Shown here: positions 1 through 47,042 of the stretch, one piece after another
How the letters are laid out: each line of letters begins with the position of its first letter
Numbering within the stretch: position 1 is the stretch's first letter
Source: an uncultured Actinomycetes bacterium
GTDB lineage: Bacteria > Actinomycetota > UBA4738 > HRBIN12
Direction of reading: 5' to 3'
NCBI GenBank assembly: GCA_963704885.1
Contig: CAVPIB010000004.1
Location: 832,001 to 896,000, forward strand
DNA length: 64,000 nucleotides
Notes under the pieces: generated by a model
Told to the model about the DNA's origin: nothing
The model's input: the letters and a program-made list of their open reading frames with translations, nothing else
Databases searched by the model: none
Program-made: the position numbers and the translations under genes

Positions 1-1029
1 GGCTCTGGACGGCTCCTGTGGTCAACATCTGCCGCCCGGGGGATGAACGAGGTGCTTGCCGACTTCCGCCCGGACGTCGTGCACCTTCACAACATCTACC
101 ACCAGCTCTCCCCGTCGATCCTGCAGCCCGTCAGGCGACGGCGGATCCCGGCCGTCATGACGCTTCACGACTACAAGCTCGCGTGCCCCACGTATCGGTT
201 CATCGATCACGGCGAGATCTGCGAGGCGTGCCTCCCCCACCGGTTCTGGGAACCGATCGCTCGGCGCTGCAACGGCGGATCGTTGGCGGCGAGCGCGCTC
301 AACGCCGTCGAGATGACCCTCCACACGTTCGGACGGGCCTACGGACCGGTGCAGATCTTCGCGTGCCCCAGCCGTTTCCTGCTGGGCAAGATGGAAGCGG
401 GCCGAGTCTTCCCGGACCGCCTGCGGTGGATCCCGAACTTCGTGGATCTGGACGCGTTCACTCCGAAGCAGGAACCTGGCGGTGACGTTGTCTTCGCGGG
501 GAGACTCTCCGATGAGAAGGGCGTGGACGTCCTGGTCGAGGCCGTGGCAGGCCGTTCGGATCTCCGTCTGGACGTTGCGGGTGACGGCCCGGCACGCCCA
601 CGGCTCGAGACGCTCGCCGCGGAGCGTGGCGCCGCCGACCGGATCCGGTTCCACGGGCGGCTTGCTGCGGATGCGCTCCAAGACCTGCTCCGATCGGCGA
701 GCGTCGCGGTAGTCCCCTCACGCTGGTACGAGAACATGCCGCTCGCCGTGCTCGAGGCGTTCGCATCCGGGCTACCTGTCGTGGGGACGGCTCTCGGAGG
801 CGTGCCCGAGCTGATCGAGCCGGGTGTCGACGGCGCGATCGTGGCTCCGAACGACCCAGCGGCTCTGGGTGAGACGCTCGCTGCATTCGTGGGCGAGCCG
901 GAACGATCGATGACCCTGGGTCGGAACGCACGTGCCAAGGCCGAGCGCGAATACTCCCCGGCCGTGCACATGGAGCGGCTGGACGCGCTTTACGCGGAGG
1001 CCGCCACGCGATTGCAGGGCGTGGCATGA
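1..1029 (+). CDS. Glycosyltransferase family 4 (GT-B), 5'-truncated by window edge
   Basis: Frame open from base 1. DVVHLHNIYHQLSPS and TLHDYKLACP N-terminal motifs, FAGRLSDEKG, ENMPLAVLEA (EX7E). Confidence 0.92.
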   Translation, partial: GSGRLLWSTSAARGMNEVLADFRPDVVHLHNIYHQLSPSILQPVRRRRIPAVMTLHDYKLACPTYRFIDHGEICEACLPHRFWEPIARRCNGGSLAASALNAVEMTLHTFGRAYGPVQIFACPSRFLLGKMEAGRVFPDRLRWIPNFVDLDAFTPKQEPGGDVVFAGRLSDEKGVDVLVEAVAGRSDLRLDVAGDGPARPRLETLAAERGAADRIRFHGRLAADALQDLLRSASVAVVPSRWYENMPLAVLEAFASGLPVVGTALGGVPELIEPGVDGAIVAPNDPAALGETLAAFVGEPERSMTLGRNARAKAEREYSPAVHMERLDALYAEAATRLQGVA

Positions 1030-2156
1030 AGCGTCTGCGGATCGCCATGGTGGGCCAGCGAGGCGTCCCGGCGACCTTCGGCGGGATCGAGCACCACGTG
1101 GAGGAGTTGGGCTCCCGACTGGTCGAGCGGGGTCACGACGTGGTGGTCTACGCCCGCCCCAATTATCTGGAAGAGCCGATCCAGGAGCATCGGGGGATGC
1201 GGATCAAGGTGCTCCCAACGGTCAGCAGCAAGCACCTGGACGCCATCGTTCACAGCGGCGTTTCCACCGTGGCAGCGATGCGAGAGCGTGTGGACATCGT
1301 CCACTACCACGCGATCGGACCGGGCATCCCTGCGGTCTTGCCCAGGTTCGCGTCGCGGGCCAAGGTGGTCCTCACGGTGCACGGACGCGATAGCGAACGC
1401 GGGAAGTGGGGCGGCGGCGCCCGAACCGTGCTGCGGACCGCCGAGTGGATGTCCGCGAGGGTTCCCGACGCCACGATCGTGGTCTCGCGCGACCTGCAGA
1501 ACCACTACGCCGACGCCTACCGGCGCCGTACCTGGTACATCCCCAACGGGGTCGATCCGGGCGAGCCACTGGCCGCGAATGAGATCGCGAAGCGGTGGGG
1601 ACTCTCCAAAGGCTCCTACGTGTTGTTCGTGGGACGGCTTGTCCCCGAGAAGGCGCCGGACCTGCTGATCCGCGCGTTCCGACGTTTGCCGGGCGACCTA
1701 CGGCTGGTGATCGTGGGCGGCTCGAGCTTCACGGACGACTACGTCACATCGCTCGAGACGCTCGCGTCGCAGGACAACCGGGTGATCATGGCGGGATACG
1801 TGTATGGAGCCGTCCTCTCCGAGCTCTACTCCAACACCGCCGCCTTCGTGCTGCCGTCCGCGCTGGAGGGGCTGCCGCTCACCCTCCTCGAAGCCTCGTC
1901 GTTCGGGGCTCCGGTCGTGGTGAGCGACATCCCTCCGCACCTGGAGGTCGTGGGTGAGGACGCCCCAGGACATAGGGTGTTCACGAGCGGATCTGAAGAC
2001 GGGGCCGTTGCCGCGCTAGAGCGAGCGCTGGTTGATCCAGCCGTCGAAAGGGAGGCTGCGGCGGCCTTCCGAGCGGACGTGCTGGAGCGCTATCGCTGGG
2101 ATCGAGCGGTCGAGCGAACCGAGGAGGTCTACGCGTCGATCCTGCGACGCGGCTAG
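1026..2156 (+). CDS. Glycosyltransferase family 4
   Basis: GQRGVPATFGGIE, LFVGRLVPEK, EGLPLTLLEA. ATGA overlap with the upstream GT. Confidence 0.93.
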   Translation: MKRLRIAMVGQRGVPATFGGIEHHVEELGSRLVERGHDVVVYARPNYLEEPIQEHRGMRIKVLPTVSSKHLDAIVHSGVSTVAAMRERVDIVHYHAIGPGIPAVLPRFASRAKVVLTVHGRDSERGKWGGGARTVLRTAEWMSARVPDATIVVSRDLQNHYADAYRRRTWYIPNGVDPGEPLAANEIAKRWGLSKGSYVLFVGRLVPEKAPDLLIRAFRRLPGDLRLVIVGGSSFTDDYVTSLETLASQDNRVIMAGYVYGAVLSELYSNTAAFVLPSALEGLPLTLLEASSFGAPVVVSDIPPHLEVVGEDAPGHRVFTSGSEDGAVAALERALVDPAVEREAAAAFRADVLERYRWDRAVERTEEVYASILRRG

Positions 2157-2160
2157 CGAG

Positions 2161-3405
2161 TCAGTCGTGTATCAGGATCGAAGCCCTGTGCGCGCCCAGG
2201 ACGACCGGCGCCGCGCGACGAAGGCCGGACCCACGGAGCGCGCTCAGTCCGACCCGGATGCGAGCAGCCGTCGGGTTCACTACCACTACCCCGTTCTCGA
2301 ACCGCCGGACGAACGCGCCACGGACGCGATGGGCGCGACCGAGCGGGTCCCCTAGATCGACCGACCAGAGGGGCCGAAACGAGGTCAGCCCGTGACCGAC
2401 CCGGAACGAGAAGTAGCCCTGGCCGGGCTGATAGCCCAGGAGGAACGTTCCCAGCGCGTACCGGTGTAGGGCCGTGCGTTGGCGCGACGAGGCCTCCGTC
2501 CACACCTTCGTCATGGAGAGGGCCCGCACACCGTGCTTCGCGACATCGGTGAGCATGCGAACGTCCTCCCGCCACTCCCAACGACCGCGGAAATCCTCGG
2601 CAGGAGCCGTCGGGTCACGGACGAAAGTCTCCGCCATGGCACCGTCCAAACCGTCAAGTAGGGAAGACGAAGGAACGTCGGCGAAGTATCGATCGCCGTT
2701 GGCGAGCCCGTTGCCGAATACGGCGGCTGGCGAGACCAGCCTGCGTGTCACGTTGGCGATCCGCCGGGTCGCGGAGAGCCAGGCAGCAGCGGTCCATGTG
2801 CCTCCCGTTCGAGGATCGACAGGCAGCGCCGTCACGTAGGCATCGCTCAACGGTGCAGTCCCCAACACGTCTAGGAAGCATCCGTCGTAGCCGCTCTCAC
2901 TCATGAAGGCGTCGCAGCGCCGGGCCACGTCGGCGATCCAGCCGGATCGATCCGGTCGCATCAGGTAGTTGCCGAACCCCAAGGACCGAACGCGGTCGCC
3001 GTTCGCGTCGGTCGCATACCAGGAGTCAGGGTAGGTGTCTCCCTCGTTCGACTGGGCCATGACCCCGTTCAGATACACAAGGAGGGTGAGGTCGGGGTTC
3101 GCGGCCTTCATGTCGGCCACGTACTTCGCATATGTCCCCTTGAGCGCCACGATGAGGTCGAAATCCCGAGCCTGGCGGAGTGCCCGCTCGCGAGAAACGT
3201 CGACGACGCCCGCCATGAAATCCGCGGCCCACACCGGGATGTGCTCGGGGTCGGCCGGCTGGTTAGAAGGAGCGGAGGCCGAACGGGTCGCTGAAGCTTC
3301 GTCAAGGTGCCCGCCGCCCGCGTGCGCGGGGATGGCTGATACCGAGATCGTCGCGATGAACGCGACGATCGAGGCTAGAACGTTCCTGGTCGTCCGGTTG
3401 GCCAC
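2161..3405 (-). CDS. Secreted putative glycoside hydrolase, GHL15-like TIM barrel
   Basis: Signal peptide (...IPAHA). YDGCFLD and DGAMAE acidic motifs, C-terminal RRFENGVVVVNP. GTG start with GGAGGGA RBS. Confidence 0.65.
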   Translation of the reverse strand: MANRTTRNVLASIVAFIATISVSAIPAHAGGGHLDEASATRSASAPSNQPADPEHIPVWAADFMAGVVDVSRERALRQARDFDLIVALKGTYAKYVADMKAANPDLTLLVYLNGVMAQSNEGDTYPDSWYATDANGDRVRSLGFGNYLMRPDRSGWIADVARRCDAFMSESGYDGCFLDVLGTAPLSDAYVTALPVDPRTGGTWTAAAWLSATRRIANVTRRLVSPAAVFGNGLANGDRYFADVPSSSLLDGLDGAMAETFVRDPTAPAEDFRGRWEWREDVRMLTDVAKHGVRALSMTKVWTEASSRQRTALHRYALGTFLLGYQPGQGYFSFRVGHGLTSFRPLWSVDLGDPLGRAHRVRGAFVRRFENGVVVVNPTAARIRVGLSALRGSGLRRAAPVVLGAHRASILIHD

Positions 3406-3540: not shown

Positions 3541-4482
3541 GTGAGCGCGAAGGTCCTCTACATCGCCGGCTCCGGCCGGAGCGGTAGCACCATCCTCGAC
3601 AACATCCTGGGACAGCTCGAGGGCTTCGTTTCCGCAGGTGAGGTGCGCTTCTTGTGGGAGCGGGGGATGCGGGAGGATCGCACCTGTTCGTGCGGAACGG
3701 CGTTCTCGTCGTGCTCCTTCTGGGGCGAGGTGCTCACGACGGCGTACGGCGACCGTGCAACGCCGGACCCGGAACGGATGATGGCCCTCCTGGCCCGAGG
3801 GACGCGGGCTAGGCACATCCCCCGGCTCGTCGGTTCGGCCCGTCGGCGAGAAGCGTTCGTAGGAGGGCTCGACGAGCTCCCCGACCGGCTCTCGTCGCTG
3901 TACGGAGCTATCGCCGATGCCGCCGGGGCCCGCGTCATCGTGGACTCGTCCAAGCTCCCCACATACGGGATGGTCTTGGATCAGGTCCCCGGCGTCGACC
4001 TGCGGATCGTGCACCTGGTGCGCGACCCACGCGCGACCGCATACTCGTGGCGCCGCAAGAAGTCGCTGCCAGACAAGCCTGGCAGCACTATGCAACGACA
4101 AGGTCCGCTGAAGGCCTCGGCACTCTGGATGCTCTGGAACGGAGCAGCGGGTGTGTTCTGGCGCAAGGACCGCGAGCGGTATCTACGGCTGCGCTACGAG
4201 GACTTCGTGCGGGATCCGAGATCGAGCATCGAGCGGGTCTGCGCATTCGTGGGCGAGGACCCAAGCGGGTCACCCTTCGTGTCGGAGACCGAGGTGGAGC
4301 TGACCCCGTCGCACTCGGTCGCGGGGAACCCGAGCCGGTTCACCACGGGACGCGTAGCGCTTTGGCCCGATGACGAGTGGCGAACCGCGATGCGCCCGAG
4401 AGACCGCGCGATAGTCACAGCCGTAACGTGGCCGCTGCTGTGGCGGTACGGGTACGTCGCGGGGACGCGCGGTGATGGTTAG
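3541..4482 (+). CDS. Sulfotransferase (PAPS-dependent)
   Basis: 5'-PSB loop IAGSGRSGST, VDSSK, 3'-PB HLVRDPRATAYS, LRYEDFV. Confidence 0.9.
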   Translation: MSAKVLYIAGSGRSGSTILDNILGQLEGFVSAGEVRFLWERGMREDRTCSCGTAFSSCSFWGEVLTTAYGDRATPDPERMMALLARGTRARHIPRLVGSARRREAFVGGLDELPDRLSSLYGAIADAAGARVIVDSSKLPTYGMVLDQVPGVDLRIVHLVRDPRATAYSWRRKKSLPDKPGSTMQRQGPLKASALWMLWNGAAGVFWRKDRERYLRLRYEDFVRDPRSSIERVCAFVGEDPSGSPFVSETEVELTPSHSVAGNPSRFTTGRVALWPDDEWRTAMRPRDRAIVTAVTWPLLWRYGYVAGTRGDG

Positions 4483-7442
4483 GCGATCGCGAAGTTGATC
4501 CACGGACGCGTGGCGTCTGCGTTCCCGGCCGCATCGAGGGCACGGACCGTGATCGTGTAGTTGCCCGTCACGGAAGGCGTCCATGCGTAGGTCCATGAGG
4601 TAGGACTACCGCCGGGCAGAGAGAGCACGGCGCCAGGATTCCACGTGAACGACGTCACCCACGTTCCTGTGGAGGCCTTCCACCACTGCCCCGTGTCGCG
4701 ATCCTTGATCCCCACCCGCACATCGACCACGCCGACGTCGTCGGTGGCAGCGCCGGTGAAGATGATCGGTCCGAACGGGAGGATCTCGTTCCTCGCGACC
4801 GACGACACCGTGCCGTCGGGAGCCACGGTGTCGGGACCACCGAGATCGACCGTGATCCCCGTTTGAACCTGGCTGCTTCGATCTCCGACCAGGTCCACCG
4901 AGCGGGCTACGATCGCGTAGTTGCCAGTCGCAGGCGGCGACCACGACCATGACCACGACGTAGATGCGGCGCCCGGAGTCGCAGGCGTCACCGCGAACCA
5001 GGTCTGCGTGGAGGACCATGCCGAACCCATCCACCACTGCCCACTGCCCATGTGCTGGACGGCCGTCTCGAGCGAGGCCACGCCTGTGTCGTCGCTCGCC
5101 GTTCCGGCCACGCTGAGTGAAGCGAGGGGAACAACGGAGCCGTCGATCGGGTCATCGAGCGTGACCGTCGGCGGACCAGCATCACTGGTCAGCTTTCGGA
5201 CATGTATGTCCCGCGTCACATTCCCAGCGGTAAGGGTGTTGTTGCTATCGCGCGCACGAACTTCGACGTGATAATCGCCTCCGTACTGGGCGCCGGGGAA
5301 GGTCCAGGACCAGGTTACGTTCGTCGGGGACGCGCCGACGTAAGGAACGATGCTCCACGACTGGTTGGTCTTCCAAGTGCCGGTCGCCGGCTCCCACCAG
5401 CTGCCGGTGGCCTGGTCCTGGATCGCAAGCTCCACGTTGGCGATGAGCGCGTTATCGGACGCCGTCCCCGTGAACGTCACCGGCGAATCGATGAACGCGC
5501 CGTCCGCCGGGGCCGTGACGCTCAGGGTCGGCCGAGAGAACTCATAGGCGGGCTTCGGCGTCGCGGGGTCGAACACCTCGATCCGGTCGTTCGTGGCGTC
5601 GGCCACATAGAGCAGCCCGCCGGCGTCGACCGACAGACCGGACGGGTTCCGGAACTGATAGGGGTTCGTGCCGTAGCCGCCCCACTTGCCCGCGAAGGCC
5701 GGGGGTGTGGTCTTCGAGACGGTCGGGGGGACCGTGAACGCCTGGATGCGGGAGAGCGCGTCATCGCTCGTGTAGAGCATGCTGCCGATGATCGCGACGT
5801 CCGACAGGGCCTGGAACTGGCCGTTTCCCGAACCTTTGCTTCCGAAGCTCGCTAGCGCCGTTCCTCCCAGCGGCGGGAACACGGAGACCTTGTTGCCGGC
5901 GAGCGCCACGAAGACGTTCCCTGTGGCTTGGTCAACGACGACGCCGCGACTGTTCCCGGGGATGGTCCCAACCTGGGTTCCCGTCGATGCGTCGAGGATC
6001 TTCACGACGGGACTGTCGCCCGGGTACTGGTTGCCGACGTCCGTGACATAGGCGTAGCCGTTGCCGAATGCCACCGCTTGGGGTTTCTCGAAGAACCCAG
6101 GTTGTGCGCTTCGCCGGATGCTCTCGTCACCGATCTGGAACAGGAAGTTCGCCTGGTCGTCGTAGACGTAGATCGTCCCGGCCGCGAAGTTCGTCACCCA
6201 GACGCGACGGTTCACCGGGTCGAATCCGATGCCTCGGGGGTATTTGAGGCCGTAGGGAGCCGTGCTGCCGCGGAACCCCCACGAGCCCAGCAAGGTCCCG
6301 TCCTGTGCGAACTTCTGGAACCGCTCGTTCCAAGAATCGGCGACCCAGACGTTCCCGGTCGTCGTGTCCACAGCGACGTCGCGTGGTTGTCCGAGCTGAC
6401 CTGCAGGCGGTGCCGGCGACGGTGATGGGAACGTTCGGAGCGCCGTCCCATCCACGTCGAAGCATTGGATCCGATAGCCTCCGTACTCGCTGACGCAGAC
6501 GTTCCCGTCGGCGTCGAGCGCGAGCTGACGCGGTCCCAGCAGCTGACCGAGAGCGGTCCCCTGCCCACCGAAATGGAACAGTGGCACGCCTGCGGTCGTG
6601 TACACCTCGATCTGCGACTGTATGGAGTCGACCACGTAGACGCGGTCGATCGCGTCGTCAACGAGGACGCTCCTCAGGTCACCCGACAAAGCGCCGACCG
6701 TGTCCGAGTCCCCTGCGGATCCGAACGACCCCCAGTAGGACCCGTCCGGTCCGATCATCTGGATGCGGCGATTGATCGAGTCCGAGATGTAGATCCGCCC
6801 CGTGGAGGCGACGTCGATCCCATAGGCCTGCGTCGGAAGCTGCTGGGGGAACAGGAGAGGGAGCGACCACAGTTGGGAGGTGCCGCCCGGCGCGAGCTTG
6901 ATAAGTCGCGCCGGATGGGTCGCGCTGCTCGCGAGGCTGCTGTCGAGCACGTAGATCGATCCGTCGTCGCCGACGGTCAGCCATCCTGTGTAGGTCTGAG
7001 CCGGAACGCCGCCTGGGTCGACCGCGATGTCCGGCAACCGGTTGCCCTGCGCGTCGTAGTGAGCGATGGTGTCTGGTTTCGGCTTGGCGACGTAGGTGTC
7101 GCCGTTGGTCGGATCGACTGCTACGGCGGCCAGGACCGATTCGGGGTCGCCGTTGGCACCGGTGGGCTGGGGCAGGTCGCGGACATACGTTCCGTCATCC
7201 GCGTACACGCGGAGCTGGTAGTTCAGATAGTCGGACACGATGAACTCGTCGCTGAAGCCGTTGTAGGCCATCCCCCAAGGGAAGAGGGCGGCCCTACCAG
7301 TGCCGGCGATCGTGCGAACGAGCGAGGGCGTCGCGAACGCCGCGTTCGCAGGACCGGCGGGAAGCGCAAGTAGTGGTAGCGAGATCGACAGCCCGACGAG
7401 CGCTCGCGCTACGCCTCTGCGGATGGTTGTGGATGTGTTCAT
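4479..7442 (-). CDS. Secreted NHL-repeat double beta-propeller + 3 Trp-rich Ig-like domains (protein C, ~987 aa)
   Basis: Signal peptide from MNTSTTIRRG to ANA-A. About 12 NHL-type blades (G.G.GQF..P.G...D....YVAD..N.RI..F). Three GTA.D..G(V/I)...WW....W...W.W modules. Confidence 0.85.
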   Translation of the reverse strand: MNTSTTIRRGVARALVGLSISLPLLALPAGPANAAFATPSLVRTIAGTGRAALFPWGMAYNGFSDEFIVSDYLNYQLRVYADDGTYVRDLPQPTGANGDPESVLAAVAVDPTNGDTYVAKPKPDTIAHYDAQGNRLPDIAVDPGGVPAQTYTGWLTVGDDGSIYVLDSSLASSATHPARLIKLAPGGTSQLWSLPLLFPQQLPTQAYGIDVASTGRIYISDSINRRIQMIGPDGSYWGSFGSAGDSDTVGALSGDLRSVLVDDAIDRVYVVDSIQSQIEVYTTAGVPLFHFGGQGTALGQLLGPRQLALDADGNVCVSEYGGYRIQCFDVDGTALRTFPSPSPAPPAGQLGQPRDVAVDTTTGNVWVADSWNERFQKFAQDGTLLGSWGFRGSTAPYGLKYPRGIGFDPVNRRVWVTNFAAGTIYVYDDQANFLFQIGDESIRRSAQPGFFEKPQAVAFGNGYAYVTDVGNQYPGDSPVVKILDASTGTQVGTIPGNSRGVVVDQATGNVFVALAGNKVSVFPPLGGTALASFGSKGSGNGQFQALSDVAIIGSMLYTSDDALSRIQAFTVPPTVSKTTPPAFAGKWGGYGTNPYQFRNPSGLSVDAGGLLYVADATNDRIEVFDPATPKPAYEFSRPTLSVTAPADGAFIDSPVTFTGTASDNALIANVELAIQDQATGSWWEPATGTWKTNQSWSIVPYVGASPTNVTWSWTFPGAQYGGDYHVEVRARDSNNTLTAGNVTRDIHVRKLTSDAGPPTVTLDDPIDGSVVPLASLSVAGTASDDTGVASLETAVQHMGSGQWWMGSAWSSTQTWFAVTPATPGAASTSWSWSWSPPATGNYAIVARSVDLVGDRSSQVQTGITVDLGGPDTVAPDGTVSSVARNEILPFGPIIFTGAATDDVGVVDVRVGIKDRDTGQWWKASTGTWVTSFTWNPGAVLSLPGGSPTSWTYAWTPSVTGNYTITVRALDAAGNADATRPWINFAIA

Positions 7443-13048: not shown

Positions 13049-13069
13049 CTTTCCTCCTGATGATGCTAG

Positions 13070-32600: not shown

Positions 32601-35600
32601 GAACCGTCGGCCGCGACCGTGATGCCTTCCGGTGCCTTGAGCCCTGCCCCGGCCTGCCCCACGTACTGACCGGTGAGGGTGAACTTCTGGATCCGGTTGT
32701 TGTCCGTGTCGGCGACGTAGACGTTGGTGGCACTCGCAGCCACGCCCTGGGGATGCTTCAGTTGACCGTCGCCGATCCCGCCCACACCGATAGGTGCCCC
32801 GTAGGTCCCCGTCGAGGGGTCGTATGCGACCACGCGATCCTTCCAGCTGTCGGCGATCCACAGCCTGCCATCGGGGGCGAAGGACAGATCGGTCGGATGG
32901 TCGAAGCCGCCGATCTGGGCGCCATCGATCGAGAGGTCGGCTCCCGACAGCCCCGGGTCCCATCGCTGGATGTTGTTCCCGCGCGTGTCCGCGGCCCAGA
33001 CCCGGCCGTCGGCAGCAACCGCAACGGCTTCGGGCCACGAGAACTTGCCCAGTCCGGTGCCACGGCTCCCACCTGAGGAGATGTAATTCCCCACGGAGTC
33101 GAGGGACTGGATGCGCTGGTTGAGACGTTCCATCACGTACACGTTCCCGTTGGGTCCGACGTCGATGCCGTACGGCTGGGCGAATCCCGGAACGGGCGCC
33201 GAGGCTCCCTCGATCGACGACGCATAGGTGCCGTTGGCGTTGAAGACCTCGACGCCATTGCCCCAGAAGTCGAGCCCATACACCTTGCCGGCGCCGTCGA
33301 CAGCTACACGTCGAAGGTGGTTGAACTTGCCGGGCTCGAAACCGGGGACCCCAGGATCGGGACAGGGAGCCGGGTGCGCGGCGCAGCGGCCGCCCCAGGC
33401 GGTCGTGTAGGTCCAGTTGCCGCCGGAGAGGTCGTAGACCACGATCCGGCCCGTGCCCGTGTCCGCGACGTACATCCGGGTCCCCGTCGCGCTCCACACC
33501 ATGTTGTAGGGGAAGTTCAGATCGCCGTCACCGGGACCGCCCAGCGTGACAGCGGGAGTTGGATTCCAATTCCCCGCAGCGTCCGCAACGAACGCCTTGA
33601 TGCGGTGGTTCGAGTAATCCGAGACCCAGATCCGCCCATCGGGACCTCTCGCGGCGTCGCGCGGACCGTTGACGCCGATATCCGGTGACGTCCACTTGAA
33701 CACTCCGTTCGCGTCCCATGCCTTGATGCGGTCCTGGGACGACGAGGAGACCAGGATCTGCTGGTTCACGGGGTCCCACGTAACGCCGATGGGCGTGAAC
33801 AGACAGTCGCTACAGGAACCGGTGGTGCCGCGTGTCCACAGATGGTTGCCGGCGGGATCGAACTTCTGGATCCGGTTGTTCTCCGCGTCGGCGACGTAGA
33901 TGTTGCCCGCCCCATCGAGGGCGGCGTCTCGGGGGCTCTCGAACTGACCGTCGGCCGAGCCGGGCGAACCGAACTCGGACACCTTGGTCCCGTTGAGGCT
34001 GTAGCGCAGGATCCGGTCCAGACCAGTGTCCGCGATAACGAGTTGATTCGTCGTCGCGTCGAAGTCGAAGCCGGACGGGTACATAGCAGCCAATGACGGG
34101 CCAGCCAGCGTGCGGACGATCGGTGCCGGTGCGTCTTGGACGGGGATGTCCCAGGTGAACACATCCACCTGGTCGTTGTAGGTATCGGACACGTACACGA
34201 GGTCACCATCAACCGTGACCTGAGCGGGATGCGCGAATCCACCGTCCGGACCGCTGAAGATCGCGATGACGTCGAAGGTACTGTTCAGGATCACCACACG
34301 GTCGTTGCCCGAGTCGGCCACGTAGATGCGGCCTTGGGCATCGACCGAGACCCCCTCGGGATGATTGAAACCGCGGTCGATGTTGCGTTCGGTCGTGTAG
34401 TTGATTCCGTTGGTCGTGGCAACGACCTTGATCCGGTTGTTGTCCGTGTCGGCGATCAGCAGCCGCCCCGTGACCGGGTGGATCGCGATGCTCTGTGGGT
34501 TCAGCATCTGTCCCCAGTTCGAACCCTTGGATCCGTACGTCCCGATAGCTTGCCGAGTGGCGACGTCGTACGCCACGATCCGGTTGTTCTGAGTGTCAGC
34601 GATGAACGCCTTCCGGTCCGTCTCGCGGATGTCGAGCGCGTACGGCCAGTCCATCTGAGTCAGACCGCTCCCGGCGCCCGTGCCCACGTATTCCACACCG
34701 CTGCAATCGGGGTTGATGATCTGGACCCGGTTCTGCTTCGTGTCGGCGACCCAGATCTGCCCGGTCACGGTGTCGACCTTGAGGCCTCGCGGCCAGTTGA
34801 ACTTTCCGAGGGTGGACCCCTCAGAGGCGCGTTCTCCACAGATCTGCTGTATGTGACCGTCCGAGTCCATGCGGACGAACCGATGGTGAACGGTGTCGAT
34901 GATGTTCAGGATGCCGTCGGGACCTATCCCGATCTGGCGCGGTTCATGGAACACCGAGGTGTCGCTGGAGGCGCCGAGAGGGGCCCCGATCGACTGCGCC
35001 CAGTCGTAGCTCAAACCCCGTCCGCGGTCGTACCGCTCTACCTGAAACCCCCAGAGGTCGGCCGTCCACACATCGCCGGTTCCGTCGGTGGCCACGGCGA
35101 CGCGACGCATCGTCGTGATCGTCCCCTGTTGGCCCGGCGTGCCTTCCACACCGAACTGCGTTAGGTAGTTTCCGTTCAACGTGAACTCCTGCACCCGGAA
35201 ATTCAGCGCATCCGCCACGAAGAGGACATCCTGATCGAGGACCGGGTCATGAGCGACACGGACGCCGTACGGCGTCCTGAACTGACCGCTGCCGCCACCT
35301 GTGGAACCCCAGAAGCTACAGGCGCCACCCGGCGTGACCTTGGCGATCTGGTTGAAGGAGTACCCAGCCACGTAGATGTTCCCGGCGCTGTCGGCGTCGG
35401 CGTCGCGGATGTCAAAGAAGCTTTGGCATGTGTTGGATCCGTTCGGGTCGTTCTTGATGACCTCGCGAACGACGGACCAGTCGGTTGTGCTAACCGCCAA
35501 CACTCGCTTCCGCCCGGTGTCGGCGACGTAGAGGACGTTGTTGGTGACGCTACCGCCCACCGGGAAGTTGATCTGCAGCGAGGTGCCGGCGCCGTCATAC

Positions 35601-36046
35601 GTCGAGAGCCAGCTCCCGTCCTTATCGAGCTTCACTATCCGCGAGTTTCGAGTGTCGATCACCAGAACGTTGCCGAGCGAATCGACCCCCACGTCACGCG
35701 GGTTGTCGAACTGGCCCACGCCCGCGCCCCATGAGCCGATCCGCCAGATCTGGTTGCCGGTCTGGTCGTACTTGACGATCTGGTTGTTCCCAGTGTCGGC
35801 GACCACGAGCGTGTTGTCTATCGCCGACGTCTCGAGTCCGCCCGGGTAGATCTCACTGTGCTGGGGCCCCCCCAGGGTCTTCACGAACAACGGAGGAAGT
35901 CCGGCGTCTGCGCGCGCGGGAGCGGCGAGAGGACCGACCACCGTCAGCAGCGAAACGACGAGCGCTATGACGGCGCCCGAAGCGGTCGCGAGATGGGACC
36001 CTCCCCGCCTGCTGCCGCGGGAGACATGTGCAACGGGCCGAGTCAT
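29696..36046 (-). CDS. Giant secreted NHL protein: 3 tandem double-propeller units + 3 Trp-rich Ig-like domains (protein E, ~2116 aa)
   Basis: ATG at 36046 with GGAGG RBS. Signal peptide ending ARA-D. Units start at FVKTLGG..EIYPGG, IVRTLAG..AMYPSG and ISNPGG..PLYPGG. Confidence 0.87.
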   Translation of the reverse strand: MTRPVAHVSRGSRRGGSHLATASGAVIALVVSLLTVVGPLAAPARADAGLPPLFVKTLGGPQHSEIYPGGLETSAIDNTLVVADTGNNQIVKYDQTGNQIWRIGSWGAGVGQFDNPRDVGVDSLGNVLVIDTRNSRIVKLDKDGSWLSTYDGAGTSLQINFPVGGSVTNNVLYVADTGRKRVLAVSTTDWSVVREVIKNDPNGSNTCQSFFDIRDADADSAGNIYVAGYSFNQIAKVTPGGACSFWGSTGGGSGQFRTPYGVRVAHDPVLDQDVLFVADALNFRVQEFTLNGNYLTQFGVEGTPGQQGTITTMRRVAVATDGTGDVWTADLWGFQVERYDRGRGLSYDWAQSIGAPLGASSDTSVFHEPRQIGIGPDGILNIIDTVHHRFVRMDSDGHIQQICGERASEGSTLGKFNWPRGLKVDTVTGQIWVADTKQNRVQIINPDCSGVEYVGTGAGSGLTQMDWPYALDIRETDRKAFIADTQNNRIVAYDVATRQAIGTYGSKGSNWGQMLNPQSIAIHPVTGRLLIADTDNNRIKVVATTNGINYTTERNIDRGFNHPEGVSVDAQGRIYVADSGNDRVVILNSTFDVIAIFSGPDGGFAHPAQVTVDGDLVYVSDTYNDQVDVFTWDIPVQDAPAPIVRTLAGPSLAAMYPSGFDFDATTNQLVIADTGLDRILRYSLNGTKVSEFGSPGSADGQFESPRDAALDGAGNIYVADAENNRIQKFDPAGNHLWTRGTTGSCSDCLFTPIGVTWDPVNQQILVSSSSQDRIKAWDANGVFKWTSPDIGVNGPRDAARGPDGRIWVSDYSNHRIKAFVADAAGNWNPTPAVTLGGPGDGDLNFPYNMVWSATGTRMYVADTGTGRIVVYDLSGGNWTYTTAWGGRCAAHPAPCPDPGVPGFEPGKFNHLRRVAVDGAGKVYGLDFWGNGVEVFNANGTYASSIEGASAPVPGFAQPYGIDVGPNGNVYVMERLNQRIQSLDSVGNYISSGGSRGTGLGKFSWPEAVAVAADGRVWAADTRGNNIQRWDPGLSGADLSIDGAQIGGFDHPTDLSFAPDGRLWIADSWKDRVVAYDPSTGTYGAPIGVGGIGDGQLKHPQGVAASATNVYVADTDNNRIQKFTLTGQYVGQAGAGLKAPEGITVAADGSIWVADTGNGRIRHFDANLNDLGDGFGNLGSAEGQFDRPHSLVAANGFLYVADTYNHRVQKFRIGETTVSLSVTADGSISNPGGVAPLYPGGGVSDGTNWYVADSGNSRVVRIDAARNVTVVSATGWNDPRSIALDPDGIHLWIGDQTGANHQVVQITKTGTVVKQIDGAGLDGPWGLAVDSTGVYVADTYHDRIVKIDPNTDAEIWSTTSVGGTPLSRPRTVTIGSDGNLYAGDTDNDRVVSINKTTGAGIGSFAIDRPRAIASDGSGGLWIGDAKNYLLVHVQNNGSLIAATSAGYGTGPSQFRQQSGIFLANGSVVVGDQWSFQLERFTVDGSGAPVYAETIGGTPPAAGGFNGPFGLTYGPGGELYVADWFNHRIEKFNANRSFATQWGTYGPVAGGLTFPRAVTVATDGTIVVTDSENNRLSLFNPSGSFINAIAPLSTGLGRPHETAIAANGTYWVADTDNNRLLHFDAAGIVLKTVTNGVSQPRGIAIDSAGDVFVANDGAADSITKYDDTGTLIGTIVNKGTGPGLLKDPHNISFGVVNDAEVLFVADTGNDRVQIFGTSGTPIAAFGAGALDAPKGVALSPDGQTLAVSDHLHNSVTFWSVMQTPPAPPDTGAPDASVTLPIQNGVYVVGSIGTIAGTAIDDQSGVASVEVGIKNRDSGLWLQSDGTWGSKVYRQMATLDVPGSTAVNWTATWTPVVGNFAVSVVTKDAVGNEDPTRPWIQFSVTASAPDTQAPVPTTTVPTNNQGFPAGMINLSGNATDNVGVTRVRVAIKNKTTNQWWNGATWQSTFTWASDATMGSPGAPSTSWSSGFVATAASYGLMVRADDAAGNFTTNSFVNFTVTSTTSDTQAPVPTTTVPTNNQGFPAGMINLSGNATDNVGVTRVRVAIKNKTTNQWWNGATWQSTFTWASDATMGSPGAPSTSWSSGFVATAASYGLMVRADDAAGNFTTNPFVNFTVT
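29706..30390 (-). repeat. Near-perfect 351-bp tandem duplication (last two Ig-like domains of E)
   Basis: 29761-30039 reads identical to 30112-30390. The few mismatches lie at the 3' end of the coding repeat. Confidence 0.92.
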
Positions 36047-36198
36047 GAGATACGTACCTCCAAAGGCGTGAGGGTGACGCCGGAGAGAACGATCTCCACT
36101 CCTGTCGCGGCCCGCTCCGTACAACAACCGCTAACGGGGATGTCGGGAGCATCGATGACAACGGCGAGCACCGGGTGATGACTTGCTTTCATCGCTCC

Positions 36199-37130
36199 CT
36201 ATCCTCTCTCAACAGATGGGTTACTGCCTTCGGACTTTCGTCGGTGACCTTCGACGTAGGCATAGCGCTCGAGGGTCGGAGCCAGGGCTGCATCGAGCAG
36301 CGCCACGTCGTGGATGCCCAGGTCGGCGCGGTAGGCCTCCTTGCGTCCAGCGTCGAACCGATACCTGCGGAACCCATCCTCGAACGCTGGCGTCCAGTCC
36401 AGGCCGAGGAACAGCAGGATCTGCTCGCGTCCGCTCACGCGGTTCGGCAACGAAGTCCTCATACCGAACGTCGAGCCACTGCCCTGAGGAACCGCGCCTG
36501 CGCGACCTCGAACGCCTCCATCAGGATCCTCCACTCGAGACCGGCAAGGACGGCGAACGACGGTCCGAGTCGTCCCAGACTCTCTCGTACTCCTCGGGCA
36601 GAGGACCCCAACCCCATTCCGCCGGGCCACGGTACCCGCGCCACCAGGGCATCTGTAGGAAGGAGTTCGCCACCGCGCGCCCGTCGCGGATCACATGGAC
36701 GAACCGCGCGTCGGGCACGATCCGCCGCAGGAAACCAGATCGCGGCCAGCCCGTGAACTTGTGGAGGAAGAGAGGCTTGTTCTGCACGCGGGCGCGCTCC
36801 TGGAAGAACCGCCGGGTTCGAACCTCCAGCCAAGGCGTGACGTCTTCAGCCACCAGGTCGCGGACCGGCGTCGACAAGGCGGGAGACACGTCTCGGTTCA
36901 ACGCGTGGTACGCCTCAGAGGGTGCGAACCGCAGCCGGCCCTTGCGCGTGAATCGCTCCGGAACGCGCCGGTAGAGTTCGTTGTTCCACTCTACCCGTCC
37001 ACGCAGGAAGCGGCAGCCGATCCTCGATGTTGGAGACGAAGCCCACGTCGGGGTGACGGGCGATGACCTCGTGAACCAGCGTCGAACCGCAGCGCCCGGT
37101 CCCCAAGACGAACGCGAACTCAGACGTCAT
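36199..37130 (-). CDS. Sulfotransferase, at least 4 frameshifts (assembly error or pseudogene)
   Basis: MTSEFAFVLGTGRCGST (5'-PSB), FVHVIRDGRAVANS (3'-PB) and VRYEDFV lie in different frames. Confidence 0.75.
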
Positions 37131-38062
37131 AGCCGTAGGCCTCCAACCGCTCGGCTTGGATGGCCGTTGATCGTGGCGACCGCGTCGGCGTCGAGCGTGA
37201 CGCGCCAGGCCTCGTTCCGGTCGGGGAATCGAAGCGCAGCGACCGTCTCGCTCCACCCATCGTCGTCCGGCAGACCCGCGAAACTTGCGATACGGGCGAG
37301 GGTCGTCTGCGGACCCTCCACGAACGATTCGTAAGATAGGCGTAGCACCTGCTCGGGTGGGATCAGATCCAGGCCACGCTCCATGACGTCCGAGCTCCTC
37401 CACCCAGTTGCGCGCGCAGAGCTCCCATGGGTCGCCGCCCTCGAGCCGCCCAGTCTTGCGGCGTTCCTCCGTACCACCACACGTTGCTTTCGGGCCACCA
37501 GTCCACTCGCGAGAGTGAGAGCGCGACCGCGCGACCGTCTCGAACCAGGAAACGAACCGCGCCTCTGGGATAGGCGGCCGCCAGGAACGCGATCCGCAGG
37601 TTGTTGGCGATGCGCTTGTTGATGAACACTGATCCACCGGATGCGGTCCGGATGGACAAGAGTACGTGGCGGAGCGCCTGACTTTGTTCCCACATGCCCT
37701 CGGCCTGAAGCTCCACGTCCTGCGTGATGCCGCACGACGTGTAGATCGGCTCGCCCTCCACCGGCATCGGGAACAGCCTGCGCCGCAACGAGCGACGGCC
37801 GCCGTACACGTAGGCGTTCGAGTCCCGACCGAACCAGACCCTCCGGCGCGTCTTCGGCATGGCACGCGCCAGCCTGTTCGCGACAGCGAGACGGGGGAAC
37901 CTTGGGAAGCGTGCCACCCAGTTCGACACGAACGCCGTCTCGGGGTGAAGACACAATGCTTTGTACAGCAGGCTGGTCCCAGAGCGAGCCGGACCCACCA
38001 GGAACACCGGTGCGGTCGAGAGATCGCGCTCGTCTTCCTTAGGTTCTTGCCGATTCGATCAC
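37127..38062 (-). CDS. Sulfotransferase, at least 4 frameshifts, start uncertain
   Basis: VFLVGPARSGTS, LVRDGRAVALSL and LSYESFVEGP across ORFs 37363..38007, 36915..37865 and 37127..37954. Confidence 0.72.
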
Positions 38063-38093: not shown

Positions 38094-38825
38094 TCAGTAG
38101 GCGCCACGGCCGGTGAGGACCGCCGGCACCGTCTTAGCCAGCAGCTTGAGATCCAGCCCCAGCGACCACGTCTCGATGTATTCGAGATCCATGTCGACCC
38201 ATGTCTGGAAATCGAGATCGGAGCGTCCGCTGACCTGCCAGATGCATGTCACGCCGGGCTTCACCAGCAGCCGTCGCCGCTCCCGCTCCGTGTAGTCCAG
38301 GAACTCCTCGGGGAGCGGCGGACGAGGACCGACCAAACTCATGTCGCCCTTCAACACGTTCAGCAGCTGGGGCATCTCGTCGATCGAGAGCCTCCTTATC
38401 GCGCGGCCGACGGGGGTCACACGCGGGTCATCGCGGATCTTGAAGATCGGGCCTTCGTGCATGTTGTCGAGGATGTGCTCGTGGCGACGATCGTGGGCGT
38501 CGCGATACATGGAGCGGAACTTGATGATCCGGAACGGCTCCCCGCCCCTGCCCACCCTCTGCTGGATATACATCACGGGACCCCGCGATGTGAGCTTGAC
38601 CAGAAGCGCGACCGCCAGGAAGAGCGGCATCAGCATCAGGATCGCGAGCACGCTCACCGTGATGTCGACCGCCCTCTTCAACGCGAGCTGCCACCAAGAG
38701 GCGCCCGGCAGTCCTCGGGCACGGTCGAGTGCGATCGAGGGAACGCCAGGGACGAGCTCGAGGAGCATCTCGCCATCGCTGGGGTCGAGCCGTATCTCCT
38801 GCTCCATCTTCTCCCTCAGCCTCAC
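38094..38825 (-). CDS. Priming sugar transferase / monotopic phosphoglycosyl transferase (Bac_transf)
   Basis: KRAVDI + one TM segment, KFRSM, DPRVTPVGR, SIDEMPQL, GDMSLVGPRP, KPGVT, D..Y...WSL.LD. Confidence 0.93.
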   Translation of the reverse strand: MRLREKMEQEIRLDPSDGEMLLELVPGVPSIALDRARGLPGASWWQLALKRAVDITVSVLAILMLMPLFLAVALLVKLTSRGPVMYIQQRVGRGGEPFRIIKFRSMYRDAHDRRHEHILDNMHEGPIFKIRDDPRVTPVGRAIRRLSIDEMPQLLNVLKGDMSLVGPRPPLPEEFLDYTERERRRLLVKPGVTCIWQVSGRSDLDFQTWVDMDLEYIETWSLGLDLKLLAKTVPAVLTGRGAY

Positions 38826-39012: not shown

Positions 39013-39942
39013 TCAGGAGGTGCGATCGCGATACGCCTGGTCAAGGCGTGCTTCCAAGTCGTCGCAGAGAGCTTCGATCTCCGGCTCCAGGTCCAGCGGG
39101 GGTGCCGACCGGCGCGAACGGCTGTCGACGTGTGCGATCAGCTTGGGTTGGTAAAGGAGCTCAAGCGCCGAACATAGGGCCCGCATAGCCCGTTCGGGCT
39201 CCTCCACCATCCCGCTGTAGGACGCCAGGACCACATCTGGTCGACGATCCAGCCCCAGGTCGAAGAAGAGCGAGTTCCGCAGGAACCAGAACAGTGCCGC
39301 GGCGCTCTCCGGCGACATCTCATCGAGGTCGAACCGCCGGATGAGCGCGAGCTGTTCGGGTCCCAGGCCCCCCGCCTGCCACATCGCCGCGCCGTCTCCG
39401 GCCGCGATCCGGCGGAGGGCATCTAGGTTGGCGGCTCCGAACTTCTGCACAGCGGAACGGACGCGACCATTGACGTCGCGATACGCCCAGATCGCGCGGC
39501 CGGCACTGGGTGTCCCGAGCTCGTCCAGGATCTGTGCGACCCGGTGCGAGTCGCAGAGCGGCTTGAAGAGGACGTACCGGTGACCGCTCTCCTCCACCAG
39601 ATGCTTGATGACCGGATCGGGGCGCAAGAGGAACCGGTCGAAGGCCGCGTCGTCGTTCTCGTTGCGTACCTCGAACTCGGGCGCGTGCTCCAGACCTCGT
39701 ACCAGCATGTTCGTACCGGACCGTTGGACCCCCACCACGAACACGGGGACAGCGTTCGGCGCCACATCGTGGGAGCGGCGCCAGCGCGCCTTGTGCATCG
39801 CGATCGGGATCCGCTCGAACGGGTTGAGTTGGTCCTCCTCGATCAGGCGACCTACGCCCTGGTTCCGGGCCCAGTGGATGTGGCGCCCGACCCGGCCGAA
39901 CAGGCGTCGCGGACCGGAGCGATCCTGGAGTGGAGTAGGCAC
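39013..39942 (-). CDS. Sulfotransferase-like P-loop protein
   Basis: VFVVGVQRSGTN (5'-PSB-like), WAYRDVNGRVRS (3'-PB-like), SYSGMVEEP. Confidence 0.6.
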   Translation of the reverse strand: MPTPLQDRSGPRRLFGRVGRHIHWARNQGVGRLIEEDQLNPFERIPIAMHKARWRRSHDVAPNAVPVFVVGVQRSGTNMLVRGLEHAPEFEVRNENDDAAFDRFLLRPDPVIKHLVEESGHRYVLFKPLCDSHRVAQILDELGTPSAGRAIWAYRDVNGRVRSAVQKFGAANLDALRRIAAGDGAAMWQAGGLGPEQLALIRRFDLDEMSPESAAALFWFLRNSLFFDLGLDRRPDVVLASYSGMVEEPERAMRALCSALELLYQPKLIAHVDSRSRRSAPPLDLEPEIEALCDDLEARLDQAYRDRTS

Positions 39943-39950
39943 TCGGCCCT

Positions 39951-40703
39951 TCAGGCGGACCGATCCGCGTAGACGAGACCGTTGCGGAGGGCGTACGAGA
40001 CGGCTTCCAACTTGGAATGGACGCCGAGCTTGACCAGGATGCTCTTCACGTGGCTGCGAACGGTTAGCGGGCTGATATGGAGTGCGGCGGCAGTCTCGGA
40101 GGTTGACCGCCCGTGGGTCAGCAGCGCAAGGATCTGGTGTTCGCGAGTGGTCAGGAGGCCGAACGAGCGGCGCGCCTCGCTTTCCCGTCGACGGGACCGC
40201 TGGAGCCGCCCGATCAGGTTCGGCACGTCGGCCAGGGTGATCGCGATCCCACCGTTCGCCACCTGGCGGATGATCGCGACCAATTCGTTCAAAGCGCGGG
40301 TCTTCAGGACGTAGCCGCGAGCGCCGGCTCGGACGGCCGCCGTGATGAAGTCGGCGTCGTCGATGTCGGTCAGAACGATCACCGATGTTCCGGGGGAGGC
40401 ACGACGGATCTCACGGATCCCTCGTCCCCCGTCCAGATCGTGGACCCGCAGGTCGAGCAGGACAACGTCCGGTTGCATCCGGAGACAAGTGGCCACGGCG
40501 GCCCCGACCGTGCTCACCGCGCCGATCGGCTCCAGATCAGGATCGCTCGATAGATGCATAGCCAAGGCATCCGTGAACATGCGTTGTTCGTCCACCAAGA
40601 GCAGACTGATCCCTGAGGGGTTGACGCCGGGCGACCTCGGAGAAGGGTGATCTCGACCGAGCGGGGAGGAAGCTCCCGCCGGGGACGTGGGGATGACGGG
40701 CAT
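39951..40703 (-). CDS. NarL/FixJ (LuxR-HTH) response regulator, no cognate kinase in window, start uncertain
   Basis: LLVDEQ, PDVVLLD, VLT and GYVLK receiver motifs. LTTREHQIL...TVRSHVKSILVKLGV HTH. Confidence 0.88.
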   Translation of the reverse strand: MPVIPTSPAGASSPLGRDHPSPRSPGVNPSGISLLLVDEQRMFTDALAMHLSSDPDLEPIGAVSTVGAAVATCLRMQPDVVLLDLRVHDLDGGRGIREIRRASPGTSVIVLTDIDDADFITAAVRAGARGYVLKTRALNELVAIIRQVANGGIAITLADVPNLIGRLQRSRRRESEARRSFGLLTTREHQILALLTHGRSTSETAAALHISPLTVRSHVKSILVKLGVHSKLEAVSYALRNGLVYADRSA

Positions 40704-47038: not shown

Positions 47039-47042
47039 CCAG

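Follow-up and report, generated by a model that had tools for sequence, protein, structure and literature searches.

A conserved actinobacterial gene cluster predicted to build a sulfated surface glycan, expanded with secreted NHL-propeller proteins and GHL15-type glycanases

Outside cyanobacteria, sulfated polysaccharides are, to our knowledge, still regarded as a rarity among bacteria. In Synechocystis PCC 6803, the sulfated exopolysaccharide synechan is described as the product of a Wzx/Wzy-type cluster, xss (eLife 2021, PMC8205485). The wps-1 cluster of Actinoplanes missouriensis is a predicted sulfated Wzx/Wzy cluster with two sulfotransferases and an embedded GH26 enzyme; its sulfated product is unverified, and that paper states that actinomycete production of sulfated polysaccharide awaits verification (AEM 2026, PMC13390465). 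Sulfated fucan is cut by the GH168 endo-alpha-1,3-L-fucanases, which are described as folding into a (beta/alpha)8 barrel, with a small beta subdomain at the C-terminus, and as using an Asp/Glu catalytic pair (Nat Commun 2025, PMC12534559). Cwp19, a GHL10 protein, is encoded in the anionic-polymer locus of C. difficile (FEBS J 2017, PMC5765458), and EsrA-type surface sensors of oral Actinomycetota have been linked to changes in cell-wall polysaccharide genes (bioRxiv 10.64898/2026.09.08.750141). Here we describe a locus in a 64-kb window (the whole stretch of DNA analysed, G000:C4:832001-896000) of a 3.0-Mb, 66% G+C genome in 20 contigs. The host is a soil actinobacterium, and the cluster is most likely one for a heavily sulfated surface sugar polymer. 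Below, G000 denotes this source genome, C1, C4 and C16 its contigs, G012 a genome of the same genus, and G018 one of another genus in the same family. The locus itself is real and partly novel. Our preferred reading, to which we give a probability of roughly 0.6, is that a conserved actinobacterial cluster, which assembles a heavily sulfated glycan on a lipid carrier, is present here in an expanded form specific to the lineage, with GHL15 enzymes as its own glycanases and NHL proteins as accessory surface or matrix proteins.

Like xss, the locus combines glycosyltransferases, several sulfotransferases and regulation in what would be a Wzx/Wzy-type pathway for a sulfated polymer. Unlike xss, going by the published description of that cluster, it belongs to another phylum and encodes a MurJ-family flippase, a small Bac_transf primer, and embedded NHL and GHL15-type proteins. 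We called genes in the window by Pfam and NCBIfam scans of long open reading frames (ORFs). For window positions 1-40742, these scans bore out the glycan genes named in an earlier note, which a model had made from the sequence alone: two GT4 enzymes, a priming transferase, a MurJ-like flippase, four sulfotransferases and a LuxR-type regulator. They are as follows.

1..1029, + strand: GT4 glycosyltransferase a (GT4a); Pfam Glycos_transf_1, 127 bits; 5' end beyond the left window edge; 41-65% orthologs in syntenic clusters
1026..2156, + strand: GT4 glycosyltransferase b (GT4b); Pfam Glycos_transf_1 and Glyco_transf_4; 47-64% orthologs adjoin GT4a in other genomes
3541..4482, + strand: sulfotransferase ST1; Sulfotransfer_3, 55.8 bits; GSGRSGST loop; without signal peptide
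7569..8987, - strand (open frame to about 9191): MurJ-family flippase paralog; PF03023, 179.6 bits; TIGR01695, 181.6, below its cut-off of 235.55
36437..37115, - strand: sulfotransferase ST3, in two frames with a break near 36990; tblastn with the Nocardioides kribbensis ortholog; Sulfotransfer_3, 39.7 bits, with an internal stop
37202..38019, - strand: sulfotransferase ST2, in two frames with a break between 37396 and 37462; tblastn; Sulfotransfer_3, 40.1 and 27.3 bits, one per frame
38094..38825, - strand: small priming phosphoglycosyl transferase (PGT); Bac_transf, 226.7 bits; TIGR03025, 295.4 against a cut-off of 295.55
39013..39942, - strand: sulfotransferase ST4, the cluster marker; Sulfotransfer_3, 31.5 bits; VQRSGTNM loop
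39951..40742, - strand: NarL/LuxR-type response regulator; Response_reg and GerE; homolog at the cluster edge in Nocardioides and peat-type loci

The same genes recur elsewhere in the phylum. Searching public genomes with an NHL2-type alignment and then by tblastn with the window proteins, we found the cluster in N. kribbensis DSM 16314, Nocardioides sp. SR21, two Nocardioides metagenome-assembled genomes (MAGs) and three uncultured Actinomycetota MAGs. The order ST4-MurJ-Wzy-GT4a-GT4b, with ST1, ST2, ST3, PGT and the response regulator nearby, is found in N. kribbensis, SR21 and MAGs, and many metagenome loci hold the same core. The N. kribbensis cluster reads: a LytR-CpsA-Psr (LCP) ligase; four NHL genes; ST4, MurJ, Wzy_C, GT4a and GT4b; ST1 on the other strand; ST2 and ST3; an NHL + Big_7 gene; PGT and LuxR on the other strand; and a GAF histidine kinase. 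A metagenome search with ST4 alone, which is independent of NHL genes, returned 271 relatives, and the counts of loci given here refer to the best 80 of these 271. Thirty of the loci are at least 12 kb long, and among them Wzy, GT4 and ST1 were each present in 19, ST2 or ST3 in 17, the MurJ paralog in 16 and PGT in 15. MurJ orthologs adjoin ST4 in other clusters as well. ST4 occurs in 4 of 41 relatives and in eight of 401 genomes drawn evenly from the phylum, the eight falling in seven families besides that of G000; this tally, like the flank tally given below, includes two unpublished genomes, G181 and G029. As judged by homology and gene order, the glycan genes are a conserved, uncharacterised cluster with a sparse and patchy distribution in Actinomycetota. 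Orthologs with 46-74% identity to NHL1, NHL2, NHL4, NHL5, NHL6, P1173, GHL15, the PhoD-like protein, MurJ, PGT, ST4, ST2 and ST3 (the non-glycan genes are described below) lie on short contigs of G018, so the expanded form is common to at least two genera.

Two further observations concern these relatives. The N. kribbensis cluster is flanked by the LCP ligase (L024:2134-3285) on one side and by the histidine kinase, with GAF and HisKA_3 domains (L030:16973-19174), on the other; the former hints at attachment of the polymer to the wall, the latter at a partner for the LuxR regulator. Furthermore, a Pfam scan of ST4 loci, which covered 114 ORFs in 8 of the 80 loci (L086, L097 and L099 lie outside it), showed a fused APS (adenosine 5'-phosphosulfate) kinase, PUA and ATP sulfurylase protein in L114:971-2809, within an ST4-type cluster, with a LuxR regulator on one side and ST2 on the other.

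The composition of the cluster suggests how the polymer would be made, with every step proposed from family membership and synteny. The small phosphoglycosyl transferase would prime undecaprenyl phosphate, and the two GT4 enzymes would extend a short repeat. Up to four cytoplasmic sulfotransferases dependent on 3'-phosphoadenosine 5'-phosphosulfate (PAPS) would then sulfate the repeat, drawing on PAPS from ATP sulfurylase and APS kinase, whose genes lie in another part of the genome. The MurJ-family paralog would flip the unit, a Wzy_C protein, present in relatives and not found in G000, would polymerise or transfer it, and the NarL/LuxR response regulator would control the genes. Each of the four sulfotransferases exceeds the Sulfotransfer_3 cut-off of 27 (ST1 and ST4 in the window scan, ST2 and ST3 in the genome search) and none has a signal peptide. 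Their sequences contain PAPS-loop motifs (GSGRSGST, GPARSGTS, GTGRCGST and VQRSGTNM), which we take to be the 5'-phosphosulfate-binding loop, and the VQRSGTNM loop of ST4 is invariant in 8 of 8 orthologs. Contig C1 encodes an APS kinase (209 bits) and an ATP sulfurylase (343 bits). It also carries a second murJ match, stronger than that of the window (303 vs 202 bits in the genome search), so the window MurJ is probably a dedicated paralog. Because of the PAPS loops, the lack of signal peptides, the second murJ, and the presence of APS kinase and ATP sulfurylase, we infer that a short repeat receives its sulfate in the cytoplasm and is flipped afterwards. These features support a lipid-carrier pathway, as the earlier note had proposed, now with a conserved cluster of four PAPS-type sulfotransferases behind it. 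Of the parts of a Wzx/Wzy-type pathway, the priming transferase and a dedicated MOP-superfamily flippase are present, while Wzy and Wzz were not found. That the window holds neither polymerase nor PAPS genes had already been noted; the suggested look for wzy, wzz or cysNC in the left flank turned up none among the genes from typA to GT4a.

The second component of the locus is a set of three putatively secreted hydrolases, which, in our preferred reading, would trim, release or turn over the cell's own polymer.

2161..3405, - strand: GHL15 TIM-barrel glycanase, putatively secreted; PF14885, 54.8 bits (cut-off 27); signal-peptide-like N-terminus
19486..21822, + strand: P778, GHL15/GH168-like glycanase with Big_7; 68% identity to P1173 over 429 aa; frame change near 20110
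22068..25589, + strand: P1173, GHL15/GH168-like glycanase with an alpha/beta-hydrolase domain and two basic Big_7 modules; frame change near 22235, in the signal-peptide region

The earlier claim of three GHL15-like hydrolases is borne out by Pfam for the first of these, which is the only PF14885 match in G000, and by profile comparison for P778 and P1173, which have no Pfam GHL15 match at E<=0.001 but prove homologous to the GHL15 protein in hhalign (97.8%, E 7e-13, 262 columns). The P1173 domain has 29 relatives in a large protein collection; most of them are fused to Big_7, and four match PF14885. An Asp in the motif WLDVSS and a Glu in GGVLE are invariant in all 31 sequences compared and lie at the ends of two strands. 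Because the same Asp and Glu align between the P1173-type domain and the window GHL15 protein in the profile comparison, the three hydrolases form one family and look catalytically competent. An AlphaFold (AF2) model of the P1173 domain (predicted local distance difference test, pLDDT, 93.0; predicted TM-score, pTM, 0.90) was compared with known structures using VIA-align, an aligner independent of Foldseek. The top matches were four GH168 chains (Z 16.9-18.5, 308-315 residues and thus almost the entire chains, root-mean-square deviation (rmsd) 4.2-4.5), followed by GH66 (Z 13.2-13.6), PgaB (12.7), GH114 (12.6), GH191 (12.3-12.4), PelA (11.9) and Ega3 (11.8), so that GH168 leads the next family by about 3.3 Z units or more. 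Foldseek agrees on GH168, with TM-scores to the targets of 0.52-0.57. Sequence comparison did not place the domain within GH168: the profile search of PDB sequences returned no GH168 chain, and identity in the structural alignment is 12-13%. The sole match of that search was insignificant and paired the Ig tail with a putative S-layer protein (E 0.14). The two invariant residues, Asp303 and Glu382, are 79 residues apart, and the GH168 reference pair is D172/E243; this comparison is of sequence positions only.

P1173 has additional features of interest. Its alpha/beta-hydrolase domain carries a GTSMGG elbow and has a weak PETase-like match at 629-838. Its Ig tail is strongly basic (isoelectric point (pI) 11.7, net charge +26), as would be fitting for a substrate that is a polyanion. 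In 14 of the 80 metagenome loci, ST4 has a GHL15 homolog as its neighbour. Taken together, family membership, synteny and fold leave the core claim, that of a sulfated-glycan synthesis cluster with its own glycanases, well supported.

The third component is a series of NHL-propeller proteins with Ig-like Big_7 modules. Whereas five paralogs had been counted before, we found six, together with a truncated NHL fragment at 13032-13433.

4479..7538, - strand: NHL1, NHL propeller with Big_7; Pfam NHL and Big_7; G018 ortholog 64%
9299..13048, - strand: NHL2, NHL propellers with four Big_7-type modules; Pfam
13032..13914, - strand: duplication remnant, a 5' fragment resembling NHL1 and a murJ copy lacking an internal part; direct repeats and ORF translations
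13931..17425, - strand: NHL3, paralog of NHL2; Pfam NHL and Big_7
17385..19202, - strand: NHL4, NHL propeller without Ig tail; Pfam NHL, 82.8 bits; own signal-peptide-like N-terminus; G018 ortholog 59%
25671..29687, - strand: NHL5, NHL propellers with four Big_7 modules; Pfam; G018 ortholog 71%
29696..36127, - strand: NHL6, 2143 aa, many NHL blades with a Big_7 tail; Pfam NHL, 394 bits; G018 orthologs 46-55%

NHL Pfam scores range from 67 to 394 bits across the six proteins, and the NHL2 family has 376 relatives at E<=0.001. Sec signals had been ascribed to all the NHL proteins and hydrolases. Signal-peptide-like N-termini, judged by eye, are present on NHL1-6 and the GHL15 protein; in P778 and P1173 the signal peptide is out of frame with the gene body. 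None of the NHL proteins has an LPXTG-like C-terminus. The AF2 model of NHL2 residues 30-700 is all beta (pLDDT 92.6). About half of it aligns with the six-bladed NHL domains of TRIM71 and Lin41 (Z 39.8-40.4, rmsd 1.4-1.6, 29% identity), with the TRIM71 domain aligning over 267 of 277 residues (Z 39.8, rmsd 1.4). Because six-bladed domains cover about half of the model, the NHL2 head is predicted to have about twelve blades, arranged as two six-bladed propellers or as one larger assembly. Its other matches (NHLRC2, PAL, lactonases and the PknD sensor) are a mixture of binders and enzymes.

The NHL genes bear marks of repeated duplication. NHL1, NHL2, NHL3 and NHL5 are 35-63% identical over their full length (NHL2 and NHL3 63% over 1165 aa; NHL1 35-37% to the other three), and NHL4 and NHL6 are more distant, at 26-30%. 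Big_7 modules end every NHL protein but NHL4 and also end P778 and P1173, the tails of NHL proteins and hydrolases being 28-49% identical. All 23 NHL6 matches in its own genome fall inside the locus, so the clustering of NHL genes is not due to chance. As had been noted, murJ is flanked by two NHL genes on the same strand, and this block appears to have been copied. NHL2 and NHL3 are separated by 880 bp that encode a 133-aa N-terminal fragment resembling NHL1 and a murJ copy without its middle, with 83-94% identity to the intact copies, and direct repeats D14, D17, D19 and D4 in 13032-13914 match 7327-7690 and 9004-9285. By this sequence evidence, the NHL1-murJ block once underwent a tandem segmental duplication, of which the segment is what remains. 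The final two Big_7 modules of NHL6 form a tandem copy of 351 nt in 29700-30350 whose DNA is 98% identical, a sign that internal duplication or gene conversion took place very recently. We propose that the six secreted, acidic NHL + Big_7 proteins are accessory surface or matrix proteins that were recruited in some lineages and amplified here by recent duplication, and that could act as binding partner, modifying enzyme or glycosylation target.

How tightly the NHL genes are linked to the glycan cluster depends on where one starts. The expectation that NHL + Ig genes accompany such loci in other genomes held for close NHL2 homologs, which lie within the cluster in N. kribbensis DSM 16314, Nocardioides sp. 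SR21 and several MAGs; the link proved optional and was not seen in the sequence available for most ST4 clusters. From the NHL side, NHL homologs led to 23 genomes, in 10 of which an NHL locus adjoins one or more cluster genes, and where the best segment is at least 53% identical to NHL2 and the contig is long enough, all loci but one (L023) are linked. In four Nocardioides genomes, an NHL + Big_7 gene occupies the same place, between ST3 and PGT. MAG MFD04935.bin.2.73, which is syntenic, shows matches to ST2, ST3 and NHL, with no PGT match in the DNA examined. Interleaving runs deep in L103 (Wzy, GT4, three GHL15, two NHL, ST3 and ST2) and in L120. On this comparative evidence, the NHL proteins are best described as a recurrent, optional and lineage-restricted accessory. 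The fixed Nocardioides slot, the interleaving in independent loci and the tail common with the glycanases fit a functional tie between NHL proteins and cluster, and they would also be compatible with co-location. For the secreted NHL + Big_7 family, which is large, no hint at function other than linkage to the cluster has emerged so far.

In the left 42 kb of the window, five genes (P778, P1173, ST2, ST3 and a class I fructose-bisphosphate aldolase) contain one frame change each. Those in the aldolase, P1173 and P778 lie at runs of four C or G, where adding or removing one base restores the reading of the homologs. The aldolase (40786-41807, - strand) is split into two frames at a CCCC run, and one extra C keeps the second-frame reading; this split is probably a homopolymer assembly error and a warning for all frame changes in this genome. 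In P778, the N-terminal 200 aa, including the signal peptide, are in the other frame, with the break again at a CCCC run. The breaks in ST2 and ST3 show no obvious homopolymer runs; both genes are intact in G012, and the nucleotide alignment of G000 with G012 (about 75% identity), which is noisy, has several single-base gaps in them. The NHL coding sequence of the window, about 21.6 kb, is unbroken throughout. Related loci from long-read MAGs show breaks as well, with NHL genes in pieces. A search for sequencing runs found one DNA run with 7% of the sampled words, which gave six short contig pieces, none over the frameshift sites, and no RNA run. The homopolymer breaks look like long-read consensus errors. 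Of the five frame changes, we are inclined to ascribe at least three to errors of the assembly; real decay of ST2 and ST3 is possible. We also considered P778 and NHL3/NHL4 as one split gene and ruled this out, since NHL3 and NHL4 each have their own signal peptide.

The surroundings of the locus differ on its two sides. The right flank is housekeeping in nature (the class I aldolase, a desaturase, an epimerase, adenosine deaminase, ppx, eno, mazG and mfd). A protein with TadE and VWA domains is encoded at 42431-44005, about 2 kb right of the locus, and a DUF1800/DUF1501 gene pair (Tat signal) lies at 45470-48338. The left flank from typA to GT4a (G000:C4:812001-832000) encodes AAA/DUF4143, P-domain, PD40 + RTX and TIG proteins and three RTX-repeat proteins, the RTX/TIG-type proteins being 559-881 aa long, as well as a 597-aa extracytoplasmic-function (ECF) sigma fusion and an 888-aa PhoD-like protein. 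A 56% ortholog of the PhoD-like gene adjoins GHL15, murJ and NHL1 in G018, and given this neighbourhood the gene may belong to the locus. A second sulfated-glycan locus of G000, at C16:11786-37966, encodes a sulfatase, two GH26-like proteins, Wzx, three sulfotransferases (one fused to GT28), a GT2 enzyme and a Wzz-tyrosine-kinase, and is followed by DUF5122-propeller + fn3 proteins (1058, 455 and 802 aa) and an RCC1 propeller.

Several observations weigh against our preferred reading. No member of the cluster has a demonstrated sulfated product. Neither the Pfam model nor tblastn with the N. kribbensis protein found Wzy_C (PF04932) in G000, a search that covered the 97% complete genome except 16 kb of C4; the gap would mean a polymerase of another kind, an unassembled gene or an incomplete pathway. 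A chain-length regulator (PCP/Wzz) had no match among the window ORFs scanned, Wzz being present in G000 in the separate C16 locus. With ST2, ST3, P778 and P1173 each out of frame once, part of the pathway is possibly dead here. From the ST4 side, NHL genes accompany only 13 of 80 loci (6 of the 30 loci of at least 12 kb, or 6 of 23 after near-identical loci are merged), and they occur in none of the six flanks of the phylum sample, though four of these hold the core. NHL homologs of 31-46% identity outside clusters lie among dnaG, polA, purA, pnp and similar housekeeping genes, as seen in a neighbour scan that used Pfam on the first 133 of 266 unassigned ORFs and tblastn with the window proteins on the other 133 (L042-L055). 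Fold searches with the NHL head returned generic NHL, lactonase and lyase propellers with no class standing out, and the acidic pI of the NHL proteins (4.5-5.5) does not speak for direct electrostatic binding of a polyanion.

The rival that survives these data best is co-location without biochemical coupling, to which we assign a distinctly smaller chance than to our preferred reading. The region would be a variable surface island in which hypervariable propeller-on-Ig-stalk proteins (adhesins, receptors or sensors) and the glycan cluster are under the same diversifying pressure from phages, epibionts or habitat. That most ST4 clusters lack NHL genes and many NHL homologs lack a cluster is as this rival would have it, as are the RTX, PD40 and TIG proteins in the same typA-to-aldolase region, the signs of recent duplication and decay, and the narrow distribution of both parts (ST4 in only 4 of 41 relatives, close NHL6 orthologs in only 1 of 40). 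Surface propeller-on-Ig-stalk sensors are, moreover, described in Actinomycetota (bioRxiv 10.64898/2026.09.08.750141). The unrelated propeller + fn3 giants after the C16 sulfotransferase locus also count in its favour, but are open to both readings, tie or co-location. Coupling is favoured by the constancy of the NHL + Big_7 slot in four Nocardioides genomes, the interleaving of NHL and GHL15 with cluster genes in the independent metagenome loci L103, L120 and L066, the Big_7 tail common to hydrolases and NHL proteins, and the absence of Esr-type MoxR, kinase and FHA partners from the window.

Protein O-glycosylation is a less probable alternative, and we think it unlikely. A Wzy_C-family O-oligosaccharyltransferase would move a lipid-linked sulfated oligosaccharide onto the NHL + Big_7 proteins, which would then make up a surface layer of glycoprotein. 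Wzy_C shares its family with PilO/PglL-type transferases, and S-layer glycosylation clusters adjoin the genes of their targets. Here, Wzy_C (PF04932, the O-antigen ligase family) adjoins the flippase in relatives, structural genes lie within the glycan cluster, and the secreted NHL proteins combine large size and acidity with linkers rich in Pro and Thr. However, most Wzy_C clusters have no nearby NHL gene, G000 has six intact NHL genes and yet no Wzy_C that we could find, and the LCP ligase gene flanking the N. kribbensis cluster fits attachment of a polymer to the wall. Finally, the idea that propellers and TIM-barrel enzymes form a catabolic locus for foreign sulfated polysaccharides, with the synthesis genes as unrelated neighbours, appears very improbable: the hydrolase fold is nearest to GH168 fucanases, lyases and lactonases are among the structural matches of NHL-type propellers, and a sulfatase follows the NHL genes in L066 and L033, but the Pfam matches in window positions 1-40742 include no gene for a sulfatase, for sugar transport or for sugar catabolism, the hydrolases are found together with ST4 clusters in different genomes, and hydrolase and NHL genes are interleaved with synthesis genes on the same strands.

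We retain the reading of an expanded sulfated-glycan cluster with its own glycanases and accessory NHL proteins. A more far-reaching version is a speculation that we advance only tentatively: the twin-propeller + Ig proteins, the GH168-like glycanases and a highly sulfated wall or capsule polymer might together form an undescribed protein-glycan surface matrix of some soil Actinomycetota, in which Big_7 would be the docking module or the site of polymer attachment and the paralog arrays would diversify the exposed propeller faces. The earlier note had read the locus as a surface polymer with a dedicated protein matrix; the glycan synthesis cluster and the resemblance of the hydrolases to enzymes that cut sulfated glycans uphold the first part, and the dedicated protein matrix is unproven.

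Comparison with known systems places the parts of the locus as follows. Searches of the published literature on sulfated exopolysaccharide clusters, GHL15/PF14885, NHL/Ig proteins and Nocardioides found no description of this cluster. Like EsrA as described, the NHL proteins combine a Sec signal with a beta-propeller head and several Ig-like repeats in a row, and lack an LPXTG motif; unlike them, EsrA has a WD40 head and MoxR, vWA, kinase and FHA partners. Of MoxR, vWA, Ser/Thr kinase and FHA, none was found in window positions 1-41822, and the Tad/VWA protein appears only at 42431-44005. The earlier analogies with S-layer/SLH proteins on a secondary cell-wall polymer and with Pel did not hold beyond a functional likeness: no SLH or pyruvyl-transferase (CsaB) family is among the Pfam matches of the window ORFs scanned, and we ruled out SLH and Pel membership, the defining parts being absent from those ORFs. 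What the locus does have in common with PelA, PgaB, Ega3 and Cwp19, going by their published descriptions, is that secreted TIM-barrel hydrolases are encoded in the synthesis locus of their own polymer, and these proteins are second-tier structural matches of the P1173 domain (Z 11.2-12.7). Cwp19 is described as having a wall-targeting module in common with S-layer proteins, much as Big_7 is common to hydrolases and NHL proteins here. Unlike those loci, the window lacks Pel, Pga and CWB2/SLH components, and its polymer differs in chemistry.

The P1173 domain resembles GH168 in fold, and its invariant Asp and Glu at strand ends may correspond to the catalytic pair of GH168; unlike GH168, it is about 180 residues larger, in addition to its low sequence identity. 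Its substrate is likely to be the cell's own polymer and not an algal or echinoderm fucan. The uncharacterised GHL15 family thereby gains a candidate substrate class and a fold link to GH168. A relative in kind is wps-1, likewise an actinomycete sulfotransferase-bearing polysaccharide cluster with an embedded glycoside hydrolase. It differs from the window locus in encoding Wzx, Wzy and Wzz together with a methyltransferase and a kinase-like protein, and its description does not mention NHL proteins (PMC13390465). With its GH26, it resembles the C16 locus of G000 (GH26-like proteins, Wzx, Wzz-kinase and sulfotransferases) more than it does the window locus. Our findings thus define a second, different and conserved sulfotransferase-rich glycan cluster in Actinomycetota, whose presence in the cultured N. 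kribbensis DSM 16314 and Nocardioides sp. SR21 makes its chemistry directly testable.

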